Shown here: one piece after another, positions 2,026-54,501 of the stretch
Numbering within the stretch: the stretch's first letter is position 1
Layout of the letters: the number at the start of each line of letters is the position of its first letter
Sequence record: MH992122.1
Origin: Escherichia phage OLB35
Length of the DNA stretch: 64,000 nt
Strand: one strand, 5' to 3'
The notes under the pieces: generated by a model
The model's database searches: none
What the model saw: the letters and a program-made list of their open reading frames with translations, nothing else
What the model was told of the DNA's origin: nothing
Translations under genes and position numbers: made by a program

Positions 2026-3594
2026 ATGACTACTATCAAAACTAAAGCTCAGCTCGTAGACAAATGGAAAGAACTGCTGGAAGGTGAAGGCCTGCCGGAA
2101 ATCGCTAATAGCAAGCAGGCTATTATCGCTAAAATCTTCGAAAACCAGGAAAAAGATTTCGAAGTATCCCCTGAATATAAAGACGAGAAAATCGCTCAGG
2201 CATTTGGTTCTTTCTTGACCGAAGCTGAAATTGGTGGTGACCATGGTTATAATGCTCAGAACATCGCAGCAGGTCAAACCTCTGGTGCAGTAACCCAAAT
2301 TGGGCCGGCAGTTATGGGTATGGTTCGTCGTGCTATTCCTAATCTGATCGCTTTTGATATTTGTGGTGTTCAGCCTATGAACAGCCCGACCGGTCAGGTA
2401 TTTGCTCTCCGTGCAGTATATGGTAAAGACCCTATCGCTGCTGGCGCTAAAGAAGCTTTCCATCCGATGTATGCCCCAGACGCGATGTTCTCTGGTCAGG
2501 GTGCTGCTAAGAAATTCCCAGCTCTGGCTGCTGACACTACTACTGTTGTAGGTGATATCTATACTCACTTCTTCCAAGAAACTGGTACTGTATATCTGCA
2601 AGCTTCTGCTGTCGTAACACTTGATTCTGGTGCAACTGATGCAGCTAAATTAGATGCAGAAGTTAAGAAACAAATGGAAGCTGGTGCACTGGTAGAAATC
2701 GCTGAAGGTATGGCTACTTCTATCGCTGAACTCCAGGAAGGTTTCAACGGTTCTACCGATAACCCATGGAATGAAATGGGCTTCCGTATCGATAAACAAG
2801 TTATCGAAGCTAAATCTCGCCAGCTGAAAGCTGCTTACTCTATCGAATTAGCACAAGACCTCCGTGCAGTACACGGTATGGATGCTGATGCTGAACTGAG
2901 CGGTATTCTGGCTACAGAAATTATGCTAGAAATCAACCGTGAAGTTGTTGATTGGATTAACTACTCAGCACAGGTCGGTAAATCTGGTATGACCCTGACT
3001 CCTGGTTCTAAAGCTGGTGTATTTGACTTCCAGGACCCGATTGATATCCGTGGTGCTCGTTGGGCCGGTGAAAGCTTTAAATCTCTGTTGTTCCAGATTG
3101 ATAAAGAAGCAGTTGAAATTGCTCGTCAAACCGGTCGTGGTGAAGGTAACTTCATTATCGCTTCCCGTAACGTAGTTAACGTACTGGCTTCAGTTGATAC
3201 TGGTATTTCTTACGCTGCACAGGGTCTGGCTTCTGGTTTTAATACCGACACTACTAAGTCTGTATTTGCCGGTGTACTTGGTGGTAAATACCGCGTATAC
3301 ATCGACCAGTATGCTAAACAGGATTACTTCACCGTTGGTTACAAAGGCGCTAACGAAATGGATGCAGGTATCTACTATGCTCCTTACGTTGCACTTACCC
3401 CACTGCGTGGTTCCGATCCTAAGAACTTCCAGCCGGTAATGGGCTTTAAAACTCGTTACGGTATCGGTGTTAACCCGTTTGCTGAAAGTTCCCTGCAGGC
3501 TCCAGGTGCTCGCATCCAGTCCGGTATGCCGTCTATCCTGAACAGCCTTGGTAAGAACGCTTACTTCCGCCGTGTATATGTAAAAGGCATCTAA
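2026..3594 (+). CDS. 23: major capsid protein gp23
   Basis: 522 aa; near-identical over long stretches to remembered T4 gp23 (e.g. GPAVMGMVRRAIPNLIAFDICGVQPMNSPTGQVFALRAVYGKDP). Confidence 0.97.
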   Translation: MTTIKTKAQLVDKWKELLEGEGLPEIANSKQAIIAKIFENQEKDFEVSPEYKDEKIAQAFGSFLTEAEIGGDHGYNAQNIAAGQTSGAVTQIGPAVMGMVRRAIPNLIAFDICGVQPMNSPTGQVFALRAVYGKDPIAAGAKEAFHPMYAPDAMFSGQGAAKKFPALAADTTTVVGDIYTHFFQETGTVYLQASAVVTLDSGATDAAKLDAEVKKQMEAGALVEIAEGMATSIAELQEGFNGSTDNPWNEMGFRIDKQVIEAKSRQLKAAYSIELAQDLRAVHGMDADAELSGILATEIMLEINREVVDWINYSAQVGKSGMTLTPGSKAGVFDFQDPIDIRGARWAGESFKSLLFQIDKEAVEIARQTGRGEGNFIIASRNVVNVLASVDTGISYAAQGLASGFNTDTTKSVFAGVLGGKYRVYIDQYAKQDYFTVGYKGANEMDAGIYYAPYVALTPLRGSDPKNFQPVMGFKTRYGIGVNPFAESSLQAPGARIQSGMPSILNSLGKNAYFRRVYVKGI

Positions 3595-3618
3595 TCTTAA
3601 TTGATTAAATCTTATTTT

Positions 3619-3636
3619 GGGAGACTTCGGTCTCCC
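3619..3636. terminator. bidirectional intrinsic terminator hairpin GGGAGAC-UUCG-GUCUCCC after gene 23 and after the antisense 89 aa ORF
   Basis: Perfect 7 bp GC-rich stem, UUCG tetraloop, T-runs on both sides. Confidence 0.8.
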
Positions 3637-3646
3637 ATTTTTGGTT

Positions 3647-3916
3647 TTATTTCTGTGCAATTTCGATGTAAGTTTTCAAAATATTTTGCCAATTAGGCAT
3701 ACCTTCTTGGACATATGCTGGAGAACCGTCTTTGTTTTTGAATGATGCAAGTTTATCAGTGGCCCAATAGCCTTTAGCTCGAGCTTCAGAATCAACTTTC
3801 ATCCATACTTTGTTGAAGGCATTACCATTAACTTTTGCACCATATTTTTCTACTAACTTAACTGCTTCAGCTTCCAGAACTTTTAAAGTATCTCGTAAGA
3901 AACGTGCTTTAGTCAT
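3647..3916 (-). CDS. hypothetical early protein, antisense to the late head genes
   Basis: 89 aa ORF with RBS GAGGAG and its own GTTTACA/TACTAT early promoter; occupies the 23/24 intergenic site where T4 carries segD; no GIY-YIG motif. Confidence 0.55.
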   Translation of the reverse strand: MTKARFLRDTLKVLEAEAVKLVEKYGAKVNGNAFNKVWMKVDSEARAKGYWATDKLASFKNKDGSPAYVQEGMPNWQNILKTYIEIAQK

Positions 3917-5331: not shown

Positions 5332-6339
5332 TTATGATACTAATTCAATCCATGCAGGACGCAGAACATCTTGCACCATTCGGACTAATTCTTTCTTAAC
5401 AAGATTCGGATTATCAGATGATGTTAATACAATACCTTCACGAGAAGTTTCTTCCAGAATATCTTGAACAGTCAATCCCATCACTTTGCCAAAATCTTTT
5501 GGCGTTACAGCCCCAATCTTAGAAATCACATTGTTAACACGATTTAATGTAACATAACAAGCTAGAACATCAAGCAAGTTTTTGTCAATTTCGGTTAATG
5601 GAACCTGAGTTTTAATAGGCTTATCAGACTTTTTCTTTTCACTGAATTTAGAGTTCTTGCACTTAATAGCTACACGAGTACCGTTTGGCAGCCATTTAGG
5701 GAAACAAGGCTTCAGAACATAACCTTCTGCAGTATTATCACCAATAACATTAGCATCAAATACACAATTATTTGCTTCGACAAGGTCTTCCGATGCCGTA
5801 GTGTTATAAGCGGCTAAGACGGAATCAAGGTCATTTGGAATCATGATAAGAGAATCAAATGTTCCACGACCAAGCATTGGTGCCATTTTAAAACCGAATT
5901 CATTACAGAAATCTTGCATTTCGTAATCACTCATGTAATAAGTATCACCGCTTTCCGTGTTTATGATGATATCGAATACATAGAAATCTTTTTCACCGTA
6001 GTCAACACCTTTCTGAATTCCACCACCAGCGAATTCACCAAAGATTTGATATGTCACTGGCACTGAAGTTGAAATACTGCCCATGACTTCTTGAACACCT
6101 TTAATAGCCTTATCATACTTCTTGAGTACGATTTCATAACCATAAAAATCTTCTGCTGGAAGAATAGGGCCTGTGCGCTTGGCGCATGTGACGTTGTCAC
6201 GTTCAATTATTAACGAGAAGTTAGTCCCATGGATTTTCTCACGTGCTACCCAAACACCAGTAGTCAAACCATTAGTGTAGAGTTTTTCAATAAACTTAGA
6301 GTTGTAGTGGTTTTCAAGACTGCTGTATTTCTTAAACAT
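5332..6339 (-). CDS. rnlB: RNA ligase 2 (Rnl2)
   Basis: 335 aa; N-terminus [21 protein letters not shown] and nucleotidyltransferase motif I (EKIHGTN) match T4 Rnl2. Confidence 0.9.
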
Positions 6340-6458: not shown

Positions 6459-6710
6459 TTAGAACTTGATTTCTATCCAATGTCCATCACGTTGGTCATG
6501 ATTAATTTTGTACTGAAAGCCGTTATCACGAAGCCATTGACCGACTTGCTCGGTGATAGTTAAATCATTCTTTGATGGATAGTACGTGAATTGTGTCTGG
6601 CCTTTGTCAGCGGCTTTCTCTGCCATCACAGAGAAGTTAGTAATAAAATCACTCAACAAATTGGCTTTAGTGGCCAGAGCCCTTTCTCTTAATTCCTGTG
6701 CAAAACTCAT
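6459..6710 (-). CDS. hypothetical protein (T4 24.2-like by position)
   Basis: 83 aa ORF between rnlB and hoc. Confidence 0.5.
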   Translation of the reverse strand: MSFAQELRERALATKANLLSDFITNFSVMAEKAADKGQTQFTYYPSKNDLTITEQVGQWLRDNGFQYKINHDQRDGHWIEIKF

Positions 6711-6907
6711 TTCTTCACCTTTTTGTTAATCAAACGTTTACGGTATACAACTTTTTCTTTTGCTTTAAACTTTGACCGAGCTGTCTCGGCTTTAGTCCAT
6801 AGTAATCCAACTTCTTTAGGTTGTAAACCAATTTTTTGAGAAATTTCTACGAATGAAAATCCCGCCTCATGTAATGTATAAACTTCAACTTCAGCTCTCA
6901 TAATCAA
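6707..6907 (-). CDS. hypothetical protein (T4 24.3-like by position)
   Basis: 66 aa ORF, stop overlaps start of the downstream ORF. Confidence 0.45.
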   Translation of the reverse strand: MIMRAEVEVYTLHEAGFSFVEISQKIGLQPKEVGLLWTKAETARSKFKAKEKVVYRKRLINKKVKK

Positions 6908-6982
6908 TCCCGTATTATTTGGTTTGTGCCATTATATACATCAATCTCAAGTTGTGTTTTGTATGCTTTAAAAACGAAGAAA

Positions 6983-6996
6983 GGGGCCGAAGCCCC
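6983..6996 (-). terminator. terminator hairpin after hoc
   Basis: GGGGC-(UUCG on transcribed strand)-GCCCC immediately downstream of the hoc stop; coordinates approximate. Confidence 0.6.
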
Positions 6997-7002
6997 TTAC
7001 GA

Positions 7003-8133
7003 TTATGGATATGTATAGATGATACCAGTTTCCAAAGCAGTTTTATGGATGATGTATCCATTACGTGATTCTTGAACATCAACTTCTGGATAGTCTTTCA
7101 TCATCTTCTGAAGAGTGTAACGATCCAGGTAGTATTTACTATCTGGATCTTCAGTTTTCCAATCTTTACCTTCTTCAGTCATTTTTTGGATTTCATCCAT
7201 AACCCACCAACCGCACCAGATGTAAGCTGAAGTACGATGTGGAAGAGGATGAACATAAGGTAATTCACCTTCTGGTTCAATTGGAGTCCGTTCAGCAATA
7301 ACAACTTCAGCGGTTGAACTAATTGTCTTTGAAGTATAATTATCTTTAGTTAATACTGCTTCAACTTTAATTGTATGAGTACCCGCTGAGGAGGTATCAA
7401 TACTGTAAGTATCGGTAGAATTACTTTCTGCTACGTTGTCTTTCTTCCAAGTATAAACAATAGCAGTACCACTAGGTTGACTGCTTACAGATGCTGTTAA
7501 AGTTGTTGCTGTTCAATAATGTTGCCGCCGGAGAAGCCGGAGTAACAGCGATGGTAGAATTATTGTCTTCTTATTAACAGTGATAGTTGTTGACGCTTCA
7601 GCTATTTCTGGATTTCCTGCGGAAAGTGCCGTAATTTGGGCAACACATTTAATTTTTTTAACTCCGCTTGTGGTAGGAGTGTAATTGAATGTAGCAGAAG
7701 TTGCTTCGCTCACAGGAGAACCGTCAACGTGCCATTGATACGTAGCAGATGCGCCTGACGGTTGAGAAGCTAAAGCCGCAGTAAATTTAACAGCTGTTCC
7801 GATTACTCCAGCAGCAGGGCTATCAGGAGTTATAGCCAGAGTAGTTGTCTGAGTTTTATTTTTAACTGTGATAGTTGCAGTAGTTTCTGCTGTTTCAGCT
7901 TCAGCTTCTGGAACTGTATTTGTTGCAACTACTTTAATAGTCTTTTGACCGGCAGGTCCTTTTAGAGTATAATCCATTGTAGCAGCCGTAGAATCCTGCG
8001 CTATACCATCCAAAGTCCAGACGTTAGTAATAGTACCATCTGGAGTTTCACCTGCAGGTGTAGCAGTGAATGTTTGTGAACCTCCAATAACCCCTGTAGG
8101 AGTTAAAGGAGATAACGTGACAGTGAACGCCAT
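7003..8133 (-). pseudogene. hoc: hoc (highly immunogenic outer capsid protein) interrupted by an in-frame stop within a short out-of-frame segment
   Basis: Total span 1131 nt = 377 codons, as in T4 hoc; the N-terminal 206 aa ORF (7513..8133) and the C-terminal ORF (7003..7200) are in the same frame; the ORF ends ...KKTIILPSLLLRLLRRQHY-stop, while the Hoc-like sequence in this ~60 nt stretch is in another frame and frame 0 resumes Hoc-like right after the stop. Confidence 0.7.
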
Positions 8134-8142
8134 AAGTTATCC

Positions 8143-8811
8143 TTATTTTAATGTTACGAAAGAAGAATTACGAGTTTCACGAATTAGAACTGATCCATCG
8201 CGATTAATATAATAAATTAAGCTAAATAATGTTTGGTGGGCAGAAGCGTGCACAAAACTAGTTGGGCGAGATTTCCAATCTGGGGTTTCGGCTATCCATT
8301 GATAAATCCACCAAGGAACAGTAACATACCCTGGGCCTTTGCCTAATTTAATGAGTGTAGGACTAAAATTTTCAGGCAGAACAAATTTTACTTCTTTATT
8401 TACCTCTGACTCAGGCTCTTTTTCAGATTCAACAACCTGAGTAATTGCTTCTTCGAATTTATCATGGTCGAATTCTTTTTCTTGTTCGACAACTTCTAAT
8501 ACTTCAACTTGGTCTGTTGGAGAATCAAACAACAGAATAGCTTCTTCTTTAACTTCTTCGTTGGTGAAATTAACACCGTCCACATCATCTGCGGCAGTAA
8601 TTAAATCGGTGATAGATAATCCATCAGTTTCAGGTAACGGTTCATCAGCCAGTGCGTTAAGAGCTTCTTCGATATCAATAACAATATTATCGAATGATTT
8701 TGTTTTCTTAACACTAATGCCAAATTGTTCCGCATATTCAAACAGTTTAGCTTTGGCTTCCTTTTTATCAGAAAGAGCACGTAACTCTTCAATATAGTCT
8801 TTATCGATCAT
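8143..8811 (-). CDS. inh: inhibitor of prohead protease (Inh), by position and size
   Basis: 222 aa acidic protein between hoc and uvsW as in T4 (T4 segE absent); identification mainly positional. Confidence 0.6.
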   Translation of the reverse strand: MIDKDYIEELRALSDKKEAKAKLFEYAEQFGISVKKTKSFDNIVIDIEEALNALADEPLPETDGLSITDLITAADDVDGVNFTNEEVKEEAILLFDSPTDQVEVLEVVEQEKEFDHDKFEEAITQVVESEKEPESEVNKEVKFVLPENFSPTLIKLGKGPGYVTVPWWIYQWIAETPDWKSRPTSFVHASAHQTLFSLIYYINRDGSVLIRETRNSSFVTLK

Positions 8812-8861: not shown

Positions 8862-10376
8862 ATGACTGACATTAAAGTACATTTTTATGATTTTAGTCAC
8901 GTGCGCATTGAATGCGACGAAAGCGTGTTCTATGAATTACGCGACTTTTTTAGCTTTGAAGCCGATGGGTACAAATTCAACCCGCGTTACAAATATGGGA
9001 ACTGGGATGGTAGAATTCGACTTTTAGATTACAATCGTTTGTTACCATATGGACTTGTAGGACAAATAAAAAAGTTCTGTAACAATATGAGTTATTCTGT
9101 ATGGATTGACCCTAAAATCTTTGAGACCGAAGACCTTACCAGGGAAGATTTTGACGCATGGCTTTCTAAACAAGAAATTTATTCAGGCAACGCCAAAATC
9201 GAACCACATTGGTATCAAAAAGATGCAGTATATGAAGGTCTAGTTAATCGTCGTCGAATTTTAAACCTTCCGACATCAGCAGGTAAATCACTAATCCAAG
9301 CACTTTTAGCTCGATATTATCTAGAGAACTATGAAGGTAAAATTCTCATTATCGTCCCTACAACAGCATTGACAACCCAGATGGCTAATGATTTTGTTGA
9401 TTATCGCTTGTTTAGTCATTCGATGATTAAGAAAATTGGCGGTGGTGCCGATAAAGCGGACAAATCTAAAAACGACGCTCCAATTATTGTTGGCACATGG
9501 CAAACGGTAGTTAAGCAGCCTAAAGAATGGTTCTCTCAGTTCGGTATGATGATGAACGATGAATGCCACTTAGCAACAGGCAAAAGTATTTCTTCAATCA
9601 TCTCAGGATTAAATAATTGTATGTTTAAATTCGGTTTATCCGGCTCATTAAGAGACGGAAAAGCCAATGTAATGCAGTACGTAGGTATGTTCGGCGAAAT
9701 CTTCCGTCCTGTTAGCACGTCTAAATTAATGGAAGACGGACAGGTAACTGAGCTTAAGATTAATAGTATTTTCCTTCGTTATCCGGACGAATTCGCCACT
9801 AAATTAAAAGGTAAAACATACCAAGAAGAAGTTAAAATTATTACCGGACTAAAACGACGTACAAAGTGGATTGCCCAACTTTCAGTCAAATTGGCCAAGA
9901 AAGACGAGAACGCCTTTGTAATGTTTAAACACGTTACACACGGTAAAGAAATATTTGAAGCTATTAAAGAGCTTGGATACGAAAAAGTTTATTACGTATC
10001 AGGTGAAGTTGATACTGAAACACGTAACGCGCTTAAAGTCATGGCAGAAAATGGTAAAGGCATTATTATTGTCGCATCATATGGAGTATTCTCTACTGGT
10101 ATTTCAGTCAAGAATCTTCATCATGTTATTTTTGCCCATGGTGTTAAATCAAAAATTATCGTACTTCAAACAGTAGGTCGTGTGCTTCGTAAGCATGGTT
10201 CTAAAGCTGTTGCTACAGTTTGGGATCTCATCGATGACGCAGGTGTAAAACCTAAATCATTAAATACTAAAAAGAAGTATACTCATCTTAATTACTTGTT
10301 AAAACACGGTATTGATCGTATCCAACGTTACGCTGATGAGAAATTTAACTATGTAATGAAAACAATTAATTTATAA
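8862..10376 (+). CDS. uvsW: UvsW DNA/RNA helicase
   Basis: 504 aa; Walker A LPTSAGKS and DECH box; long identity to remembered T4 UvsW; late promoter upstream. Confidence 0.95.
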   Translation: MTDIKVHFYDFSHVRIECDESVFYELRDFFSFEADGYKFNPRYKYGNWDGRIRLLDYNRLLPYGLVGQIKKFCNNMSYSVWIDPKIFETEDLTREDFDAWLSKQEIYSGNAKIEPHWYQKDAVYEGLVNRRRILNLPTSAGKSLIQALLARYYLENYEGKILIIVPTTALTTQMANDFVDYRLFSHSMIKKIGGGADKADKSKNDAPIIVGTWQTVVKQPKEWFSQFGMMMNDECHLATGKSISSIISGLNNCMFKFGLSGSLRDGKANVMQYVGMFGEIFRPVSTSKLMEDGQVTELKINSIFLRYPDEFATKLKGKTYQEEVKIITGLKRRTKWIAQLSVKLAKKDENAFVMFKHVTHGKEIFEAIKELGYEKVYYVSGEVDTETRNALKVMAENGKGIIIVASYGVFSTGISVKNLHHVIFAHGVKSKIIVLQTVGRVLRKHGSKAVATVWDLIDDAGVKPKSLNTKKKYTHLNYLLKHGIDRIQRYADEKFNYVMKTINL

Positions 10377-51218: not shown

Positions 51219-54200
51219 ATGGCTACTTTAAAACAAATACAATTTAAAAGAAGCAAAACTGCAGGAGCACGTCCTGCTGCTTCAGTATTAGCCGAAGGTG
51301 AATTGGCTATAAACTTAAAAGACCGTGTACTTTTTACTAAAGATGACCAAGGAAATATTATTGATCTAGGTTTTGCTAAAGGTGGTAGTATTGACGGGAA
51401 TGTTATTCATACTGGCAATTACAACCAAACTGGTGATTATACTTTAAATGGCGTCTTCACACAGACGGGTAATTTTAATTTAACTGGTATTGCTCGAGTA
51501 ACTCGCGATATTATTGCCGCCGGGCAGATTATGACTGAAGGCGGTGAACTTATTACAAAAAGTTCAGGCACAGCACATGTTCGTTTTTTCGATAACAATA
51601 GTCGCGAACGCGGAATCATTTATGCCCCGGCTAATGATGGTTTAACTACACAAGTACTTAATATCAGGGTTCAAGACTACGCCGCTGGTGATGAAAGCAC
51701 CTATGCATTTTCGGGCAGCGGACTATTTACTTCACCTGAAGTATCAGCATGGAAATCTATTTCGTCTCCACAAATTCTGACCAACAAAGTCATTACAAAT
51801 GGGAAGAAGACCGGCGATTATGATATCTATTCATTATCAAATAACGTTCCATTGTCAGAAAGCGAAACGGCTATTAACCACCTCCGTGTCATGCGAAATG
51901 CTGTTGGTTCTGGTATTTTCCACGAAGTTAAAGTTAATGATGGAATAACCTGGTATAGCGGAGATGGATTAGACACTTATCTTTGGTCGTTTACCTGGAG
52001 CGGTGGAATTAAATCCAGTCACTCTATTTCTATCGGTTTACCAGGCGGTAATAAAGATTATTCAATATTAGGACCATCTTCGATTGCTCTTGGCGATAAT
52101 GACACCGGGTTAAAATGGCACCAGGATGGATATTTCCATACAGTAAACAATGGAACAAGAACTTTCATCTACGGCCCTGCAGAAACACAAAGCCTTAGAA
52201 AAATGGTTATGGGTTATTCTCCAGATGGGCTTCTTATGACAACGCCACCGACAGAAAACTATGCTTTGGCTACTGTTGTTACTTACCATGATAATAACGC
52301 ATACGGTGACGGTCAAACTCTTTTAGGATATTATCAAGGCGGTAACTATCATCATTATTTTCGCGGTAAGGGTACTACAAACATTAATACTCACGGCGGT
52401 TTGTTAGTTACTCCAGGTAATATTGATGTTATTGGCGGTTCTGTTAATATAGATGGTAGAAATAATTCTTCTACACTAATGTTTAGAGGCAACACAACAG
52501 GATACAGCTCGGTTGATAATATGGATATTAAAGTTTGGGGTAATACGTTTGTTGATCCAAGCGGAGGTATCCGTAAAAACGTCATGGAAATTTCTGATGC
52601 AACTAGTTGGATGAGCTATATTCAAAGACTTACAACAGGTGAAGTAGAAATGAACGTTAACGGTTCATTTGAATCATCTCGTGTTACTGCTGGAGATAGG
52701 GGAGTTTACACAACAGGCGAAATTTCATCTGGAGCAGTGAATGCGCTTCGTATTTGGAACGCAGATTATGGAGCTATTTTTAGACGTTCAGAAGATAGTC
52801 TTCATATTATTCCAACTGCTTACGGTGAAGGTAAACACGGCGATATCGGTCCACTTCGCCCGTTTAGTATGGCTTTAGATACTGGTAAAGTTACTATTCC
52901 AGATTTACAATCAAAATACAATACGATCACTGCGAACGGCTATATTAAATTTGTTGGCCATGGTGCAGGCGCTGGTGGTTATGATATTCAATATGCTCAA
53001 GCAGCTCCTGTTTTCCAGGAAATCGATGATGATGCTGTAAGCAAATATTATCCTATTGTTAAGCAGAAGTTTTTAAACGGTAAAGCAGTTTGGTCTTTAG
53101 GTACCGAAATTAATTCGGGTACATTCGTTATTCATCATCTGAAAGAAGATGGATCACAAGGCCATACATCTCGTTTTAATCAAGACGGCACAGTTAATTT
53201 CCCTGATAACGTTCTGGTCGGCGGCGGCGAAGCTGCTATTGCTCGTAATGGTAATATTTTCTCGGATATTTGGAAAACGTTTACTTCAGCAGGCGACGTA
53301 ACTAATATTCGCGATGCAATAGCTACTCGTGTTGCTAAAGAAGGCGATACGATGACAGGCGCTCTTTGGATTAATAAAGATGCTGCTGGAATAGTTCTTA
53401 ATCCTCCTTTGGCTAGTGATTCATCATTTATTCGTTCTGATACGGCCGGGGTCAATAATTGGTATATTGGTAAAGGCGGTGCCGACAATGGTCTAGGTTT
53501 TTACAGTTACATTACACAAGGCGGTGTATACATAACAAATACCGGTGAAATATCGCTTTCTCCTCAAGGACAAGGAACATTTAATTTTAATAGAGACCGC
53601 CTTTATATAAATGCTAGTCAATGGATTGCACATAAATCTGGCGCTTGGGGCGACCAATGGGGCTTAGAAGCTCCTGTATTTGTGGATTTTGGTAGCGTTG
53701 GTAATGATAGTTATTATCCTATTATCAAAGGAAAATCTGGTATTACTAATGAAGGTTATGTATCTGGTGTTGATTTCGGTATGCGACGCATTACTAATAC
53801 ATGGGCACAAGGTATTATCCGTGTAGGTAATCAGGAAAACGGTTCCGACCCACAAGCTATCTATGAATTTCACCATAGCGGTACTTTTTACGCACCCGGT
53901 CTGCTTAAATCTAGTCGTGTTTCTGCGGGTGGTGGTGACCCTGCGTGGGGTAGTCCTTGTATTGTATTAGGTGACAACGATACCGGATTTCTTTGGGAAG
54001 CAGATGGTATTTTCAACGCATATGCAAACGGCCAAGGCGTATTCAGTTTTAGAGCTGGTCTCGCACAAACGTTCGGTAACGTATCGTTAAACGTTAACGC
54101 AGGTATGTATGTTCGTGATAACATTGATGTTAACGATGTTTATATCCGTTCTGATATTCGTTGTAAGTCAGAAATTAAGCTTATTAAGAACGCTCAAGAG

Positions 54201-54470
54201 AAATCTAAACTCTTAGGCGGCTATACTTATCTGCTTAAAAACTCTGTTACAGACGAAGTTAAACCGTCTGCAGGTTTGATTGCTCAGGAAGTTCAAGAAG
54301 TATTGCCCGAACTTGTTTCTGAAGATAAAGAGACCGGACTGCTTCGTTTGAACTATAACGGTATTATCGGTTTAAATATTGCTACAATCAACGAGCATAC
54401 TGACGAAATCAAGGAATTGAAATCCGAAATTGCTGAGTTGAAAGCATTAATTAAATCATTGATAAAATAA
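51219..54470 (+). CDS. 37: long tail fibre distal subunit gp37 with C-terminal intramolecular chaperone (peptidase S74-like) domain
   Basis: 1083 aa; C-terminus [29 protein letters not shown]...[16 protein letters not shown]...coiled coil matches the endosialidase/T5 pb1 auto-cleaving chaperone signature. Confidence 0.88.
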
Positions 54471-54475
54471 TAAAA

Positions 54476-54490
54476 GGGCCTTCGGGGCCC
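54476..54490 (+). terminator. GC hairpin GGGCC-UUCG-GGCCC between gene 37 and gene 38
   Basis: Between the 37 stop and the 38 RBS GGAGG; no long T-run, so probably a partial terminator or RNA stabiliser. Confidence 0.5.
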
Positions 54491-54501
54491 TGGAGGTTTA
54501 T

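Follow-up and report, generated by a model that had tools for sequence, protein, structure and literature searches.

A premature stop within an out-of-frame patch of a mosaic hoc allele in Escherichia phage OLB35: recent lesion or consensus artefact

At positions 7003–8133 (minus strand) of the DNA analysed here, a 64,000-nt stretch of Escherichia phage OLB35 (MH992122.1; hereafter the window), a locus with the length and setting of hoc carries an internal stop codon. This raises the question of whether the gene has been inactivated in the phage, whether the sequence as written contains an error, or whether a product is still obtained by unusual means. The sequence of the window is that of an RB69-like phage of the T-even group (genus Mosigvirus); its first 20 kb are 97–98 % identical to CCU7, Mizar, TH12, phiC120 and others. 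The ORF order, rnlB (5332–6339), 24.2 (6459–6710), 24.3 (6707–6907), hoc (7003–8133), inh (8143–8811) and uvsW (8862–10376), is canonical and recurs in RB69, Mizar and others. The hoc locus lies between inh (hoc.1) and 24.3/24.2/rnlB and is co-directional with inh. It comprises 377 codons including the terminal TAA, which is the canonical 1131 nt.

Both halves of the locus match phrog_1149 (Hoc-like head decoration; E=1.5e-49 and E=9.5e-67), and the conceptually repaired protein matches T4 Hoc (PDB 5vf3_Z) from end to end (E=1e-153). Ig domains are indicated by sub-threshold Pfam matches to PKD, Ig_2 and BiPBP_C, such as intact homologues also give. The capsid-binding domain at the C-terminus is encoded in frame 0 at approximately 7003–7278, 3′ of the premature stop, with about 99 % identity to intact alleles, and the conserved C-terminus (ESRNG...TYP) is present, the ESRNG motif occupying positions 355–359 of the protein. 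A Shine-Dalgarno sequence (AAGGA, minus strand, 8140–8144, read from the sequence) is intact 6 nt 5′ of the hoc ATG, as is an intrinsic terminator hairpin (minus strand, 6981–6998) just 3′ of the hoc stop; a terminator is annotated at the corresponding place 3′ of hoc in the NRG-P0074 record. Judged from sequence and context, the locus is hoc (highly immunogenic outer capsid protein), the dispensable head decoration of an RB69-like Mosigvirus. What it lacks is one uninterrupted ORF in which the Ig domains are continuous with the binding domain, as a TGA at 7513–7515 follows a 54-nt out-of-frame stretch. Since the ORF is interrupted, the locus is filed as a hoc pseudogene, or disrupted hoc, and not as a functional member. 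A preliminary description had already read it as hoc broken by an in-frame stop, and the codon count, the gene context and the phrog_1149 matches bear this out.

With hoc nucleotides numbered from the ATG, the window coordinate is 8134 − n. Translation of the minus strand over 7003–8133 gives 377 codons with exactly one internal stop, the TGA at codon 207; the other two frames contain 17 and 37 stops. Frame 0 is Hoc-like as far as ...TITVNKK (hoc nt 567), continues as ...TITVNKKTIILPSLLLRLLRRQHY to the stop, and is then Hoc again (TATTLTASVSSQPSGTAIVYTWKKDN...) up to the C-terminus, so that the N- and C-terminal parts do share one frame, as first described. The out-of-frame stretch between them spans 54 nt (minus strand, 7514–7567). 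Its shifted frame encodes DNNSTIAVTPASPAA over 7523–7567, of which the NNSTIAVTPASPAA part is identical to Hoc of phage UGJNEcP1, and the core at 7523–7561 (hoc nt 573–611) is identical at 39 of 39 positions to the start of domain 2 of UGJNEcP1 hoc, one base out of register. The Hoc-like sequence reported earlier in another frame is therefore genuine, and only its extent, then given as 7513–7580, has to be narrowed slightly. With both halves matching phrog_1149 and the repaired protein matching T4 Hoc, the appearance of Hoc in two frames is, on these homologies, not a matter of chance.

The two edges of the stretch were mapped against domain 2 of RB69/UGJNEcP1 by pairwise alignments, a table of domain starts and k-mer painting. 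At the 5′ edge (lesion 1, minus strand, 7562–7569) the window has AAGACAAT where RB69/UGJNEcP1-type alleles have AAAGAAAAT, a −1 change with an adjacent A>C. Pairwise alignments with the nearest intact allele give the change as AAGAAAGAAAAT to AAGACAAT, and in wider context RB69/UGJN-type AAGAAAGAAAATAAT is replaced by AAGAAGACAATAAT, again −1 with A>C. The outcome is a 17-mer, GTTAATAAGAAGACAAT, which k-mer painting finds to be identical to TH12/FL31-type alleles. At the 3′ edge (lesion 2, minus strand, 7514–7522) the RB69-type domain 2 sequence GTAGAAATTGG has become ACATTATTG, a complex replacement with a net change of −2; in wider context GCAGTAGAAATTGGAACAGC is replaced by GCAACATTATTGAACAGC. 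The conserved ATTGGAACAGC (Ile-Gly-Thr-Ala) here reads ATTG-AACAGC, and it is the loss of its G that creates the TGA. As written, hoc thus reads AAGACAAT and ACATTATTGAAC at the two lesions, and −1 and −2 sum to −3, restoring the frame. Alignment to the closest intact allele does not support the two compensating single-base indels proposed at first, given that the shifts are −1 and net −2, each with adjacent substitutions. No closer match to the 9-mer context of lesion 2 was found among 50,697 phage records, and a short 63-nt query for a donor of the ACATTATTG patch returned a best match of just 78.5 %.

The surrounding allele is itself composite. K-mer painting against fetched hoc loci (12 in one round and 24 in another) assigned hoc nt 7–107 to an RB69-type domain 1, nt 169–498 to an exact CCU7-type sequence, nt 506–611 to RB69/UGJN-type sequence covering the end of domain 1 and the start of domain 2, nt 629–647 to an exact 19-nt patch of the last Ig domain, and nt 683 onward to the last Ig domain and the C-terminal domain, with 94–99 % identity to intact alleles. 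The 19-nt patch, CAACTTTAACAGCATCTGT (minus strand, 7487–7505), is in frame and equals the last Ig domain of RB69/CCU7-type alleles amid domain-2-like sequence; it shows fine-scale mosaicism adjoining the lesions. Two further in-frame stretches, 7966–8026 (hoc nt 108–168) and 7452–7486 (hoc nt 648–682), share no 12- to 14-mer with any of the fetched alleles, and the former is the site of the switch from RB69-type domain 1 to CCU7-type sequence. Because of these unique stretches the allele is not a simple splice of known alleles. In composition it is a mosaic of RB69-type and CCU7/TH12-type modules with three Ig domains, one not seen before.

No copy of the allele, broken or intact, was found by exact-pattern scans of IMG/VR, JGI metagenome contigs and GTDB genome contigs, nor in the 50,697 phage records or a 5.8-billion-cluster protein set, and the complete genomes and plasmids of E. 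coli gave no match. A 153-billion-gene index contains neither the 206-aa product nor RnlB in exact form. Contigs with an identical Inh or gp24.2 carry other hoc alleles. Among matches to the repaired Hoc protein, the best of 376 aa has only 73 % identity, and the chimeric domain-3 motifs occur in none of the best 120.

Both frame-shifting lesions fall at transitions between Ig-module types, and for this reason a single recombination or template-switch event would be the most economical origin; two independent point indels are less likely. Under such a model, a single short-patch recombination or template switch, imprecise and involving diverged Ig modules or alleles, would have thrown 54 nt at the beginning of the third Ig module out of codon register, with a shift of −1 at the 5′ edge and a net shift of −2 at the 3′ edge. 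Pairing by local nucleotide similarity (GAnAAT; ATTG), and not by codon register, would account for both edges. A more specific version, in which the patch is the fresh footprint of Ig-module shuffling and a tract of about 50 nt of RB69-type domain 2 was copied into a different allele by template switching or short-patch conversion, is rather unlikely. A perfect 7-bp inverted repeat, CAATAAT/ATTATTG, lies on both lesions (7559–7565 and 7514–7520); random pairs of 20-nt sites in hoc share a 7-bp inverted match about 2 % of the time. The repeat hints at quasi-palindrome template switching or may be due to chance, and such switching would account for part of the lesion change only. A diversity-generating retroelement was rejected on the pattern of change, which consists of patch-like mosaics of other modules and not of adenine-specific substitutions.

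The ORF as written (minus strand, 7513–8133) encodes 206 aa followed by TGA. It includes Ig domain 1 (approximately 7849–8133) and Ig domain 2 (approximately 7564–7848), both on the minus strand, gives weak PKD/Ig Pfam matches, and ends in 17 out-of-frame residues, TIILPSLLLRLLRRQHY. In T4 Hoc the capsid-binding domain consists of the C-terminal residues 281–376 (PMC10385173). With the stop at codon 207 and this domain encoded downstream, the earlier account of a product that keeps two Ig-like domains and loses the C-terminal one stands. The untranslated frame-0 remainder (minus strand, 7003–7512) contains 169 codons and the TAA, and holds most of a chimeric Ig domain 3 together with the capsid-binding domain. 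Its identity to intact alleles ranges from 94–96 % (503 nt) to about 99 % (last 276 nt), and no further lesions are present within 7003–7512. The first ATG, GTG or TTG in frame 0 after the stop is at 7198–7200, from which only a 65-aa remnant would result.

Ribosomes would thus be expected to read 17 junk codons and then stop at the TGA, releasing a 206-aa soluble fragment of two Ig domains which, without the capsid-binding domain of the C-terminus, could not attach to gp23* hexamers. Given the predicted loss of that domain, virions should carry no Hoc fibres, and the phage would be viable because Hoc is non-essential. Because no damage affects the expression signals or the 169 codons after the stop, either the event is young or it is not real.

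On the second of these possibilities, the locus was set against the rest of the genome. Of 100 ORFs taken from two relatives, 95 map at full length and in a single frame within the window; the remaining five are the naturally diverged tip of gp37 and four ORFs that were judged to be spurious or antisense, of which two were confirmed as such against annotated genes. The largest ORF-free gap in the 64 kb, 7201–7512, is within hoc, and hoc is the only broken gene found in the window. Genome-wide sequencing noise was rejected on these grounds, as no other broken gene was found there. Assembler repeat collapse was likewise rejected as implausible, since the Ig modules within one hoc are only 55–59 % identical, with no shared exact word longer than 14 nt.

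As a separate observation, the C-terminal third of gp37, the long tail fibre distal subunit (53226–54501), has no protein match of at least 70 % to phiC120; the ORFs are intact. The unmatched stretch possibly includes the adhesin region after gp37, and it looks like the usual hypervariable tip that determines host range.

In the version of the artefact that fares best, hoc is intact in the phage, and the out-of-frame patch arose as reads of a co-isolated second Mosigvirus hoc allele, or of a mixed population, were merged or polished onto the contig in nucleotide register and not in codon register. Two lesions 45–54 nt apart that cancel exactly and keep the canonical length would be an odd coincidence for natural mutation, whereas laying second-allele reads out of register on a backbone can produce cancelling lesions during consensus building or polishing. 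The shifted core is also a perfect copy of a known intact allele, and hoc is the most polymorphic part of a region with ~98 % conservation elsewhere; it is in such places that consensus errors of mixed populations concentrate. Additionally, the allele is unique in all databases searched, so that nothing corroborates the sequence, and split hoc annotations are frequent in public records, several of them resembling homopolymer sequencing errors. Against this, no other frame error occurs within approximately 54 kb of matched coding sequence, the lesions lie outside long homopolymers and are not homopolymer-length errors, the Ig repeats are too diverged to collapse, and the in-frame unique sequence at hoc nt 108–168 and 648–682 argues for a real, distinct allele. 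The artefact remains a serious contender, if one that probably does not apply. A real and recent inactivating lesion in hoc, present in the phage DNA and not only in the assembly, is somewhat better than an even prospect, and the evidence leans slightly in its favour. The preliminary description had held an artefact and a natural null to be equally possible. For the mixed-population consensus error much of that caution is still warranted, but random error and repeat collapse are disfavoured.

Far less probable is that hoc remains functional through recoding, be it UGA read-through, which would give full-length Hoc in which 17 residues are scrambled, a pair of programmed frameshifts, or a bypass like that of gene 60. 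A bypass of about 50 nt has a T-even precedent in T4 gene 60. The 169 codons after the stop are intact and share the frame of the start codon, and ACA codons, read from the sequence, flank a candidate gap of about 51 nt (hoc nt 568–570 and 622–624). However, the first shift, in the context AAT AAG AAG ACA, lacks a slippery heptamer, and the putative take-off codon is not followed directly by a stop codon. RNA structure is not significant (MFE −13 kcal/mol, z = −0.99), neither a tRNA nor a suppressor tRNA is encoded in the window, and the arrangement is conserved in no relative. The gap is moreover a near-perfect copy of ordinary coding sequence of an intact allele, which marks a fresh lesion and not an evolved signal. 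A programmed recoding site was rejected on the missing slippery or take-off signal, the fold z-score and the want of any relative with the arrangement.

The least probable reading, a deliberate two-gene arrangement of a free two-Ig protein and a separately translated C-terminal capsid-binding fragment, can draw on the existence of short Hoc variants (Muldoon, 314 aa, and PG7, 233 aa, PMC10385173; PhiPNJ-9 Hoc without domain 3, PMC11853027; and the 283-aa two-Ig Hoc of the Logan contig described below) and on a 65-aa C-terminal ORF that gene callers often report, forming phrog_21694, but frame 0 has no ATG, GTG or TTG from the stop to 7200, so that translation could yield no more than the last 65 aa, short of the 96 residues of the binding domain, 312 nt of good Hoc coding sequence would go untranslated, and the functional short variants are single in-frame ORFs.

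The inactivating lesion, if real, has consequences for the use of the isolate. Hoc is an Ig-domain fibre implicated in adherence to mucus/MUC2, immunogenicity and particle dispersion (PMC10385173; PMC11853027; PMC9271167), and OLB35 capsids would be Hoc-less, which matters for phage therapy, mucosal studies or Hoc display with this isolate. The lesion would also be an example of Ig-module recombination misfiring; were the shuffling footprint correct, Ig-domain diversification of a phage adhesin for mucus and host surfaces would have been caught in progress, failures included. Otherwise the locus is an ordinary young pseudogene of a non-essential gene, or a local assembly error, with practical relevance only to users of OLB35. 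In an annotation, hoc should provisionally be marked as disrupted.

A disrupted hoc ORF is recurrent in deposited T-even genomes. Public records with hoc split into at least two ORFs include NRG-P0074, a20, NHEP10, MK962756.1, ECML-134, IME537, ACG-C40 and vB_Eco_EL. In a sample of 60 records, evenly spaced among the 661 phage records that match the hoc locus, hoc is annotated as two CDSs in 4 (~7 %) and not annotated at all in 1; among the 40 best matches to the locus, it is split in 3. The split results from A8>A9 in NRG-P0074 (PQ480333.1), from A8>A7 with a compensating A5>A6 396 nt downstream in a20 (OQ067374.1), and from a +1 in an A-run in NHEP10 (PQ511148.1); in MK962756.1 the frameshift lies inside the capsid-binding domain. 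These four cases are either homopolymer sequencing errors or in vivo poly-A slippage. Nothing specific on natural hoc frameshifts was found in the literature searched.

Several records met in the course of these comparisons deserve mention in their own right. The family phrog_21694 ('Hoc-like head decoration') has 66 positions only and corresponds to the MDEIQK...TYP remnant ORF; evidently, many truncated hoc tails have been called in phage genomes by gene callers. The 32-kb record MG010123.1, labelled 'Staphylococcus phage SAJK-IND', is 86.6 % identical to the T4-like hoc/inh region and is probably mislabelled or contaminated. In MH550421.1 (Enterobacteria phage T6) only inh is annotated under the hoc/inh match, without a hoc CDS. 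Contig L017 (Logan, SRR30679767) encodes at 2858–3709 an intact 283-aa two-Ig Hoc from which domain 3 has been deleted cleanly in frame; it resembles the PhiPNJ-9 variant. In the 378-aa P0063 Hoc, a junction falls within an Ig module.

Among known systems, T4 Hoc (PDB 5vf3 chain Z; Fokine et al. 2023, PMC10385173) has the same locus between inh and 24.3 and the same 376-aa length class, whereas the OLB35 ORF is interrupted after domain 2 and its Ig modules are mosaics of RB69/CCU7 type, not T4 type. A parallel in outcome is T4 HAP1 (T4 delta-Hoc), in which a spontaneous C496T ochre mutation in hoc places a nonsense codon at 44 % of the gene; its capsids lack Hoc and the phage is viable (PMC10580926). 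This upholds the earlier remark that Hoc is dispensable and a natural null plausible. In both phages the premature stop lies inside Ig domain 2 or past it (at 44 % of the protein for HAP1 and 55 % for OLB35), at the cost of the capsid-binding domain. HAP1 carries a single nonsense substitution, whereas the OLB35 stop derives from a short out-of-frame patch with a complex indel at either end. OLB35 hoc shares two compensating shifts with a20 hoc; however, the aligned split genes (NRG-P0074, a20 and NHEP10) differ by ±1 in poly-A runs, whereas the OLB35 changes are complex, indel plus substitution, and sit at mosaic junctions. Intact Hoc ORFs of Mosigvirus and relatives are of 283, 376–378, 471–472 and 567–570 aa and include chimeric modules, and a two-Ig variant, PhiPNJ-9 Hoc, which lacks domain 3, has been shown to function in mucus binding (PMC11853027). 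As in these domain-number variants, Ig modules in OLB35 hoc would have been gained, lost or made chimeric by recombination; but the variants keep their reading frame and presumably their function, whereas the shifted patch of OLB35 has junctions that were resolved out of frame.
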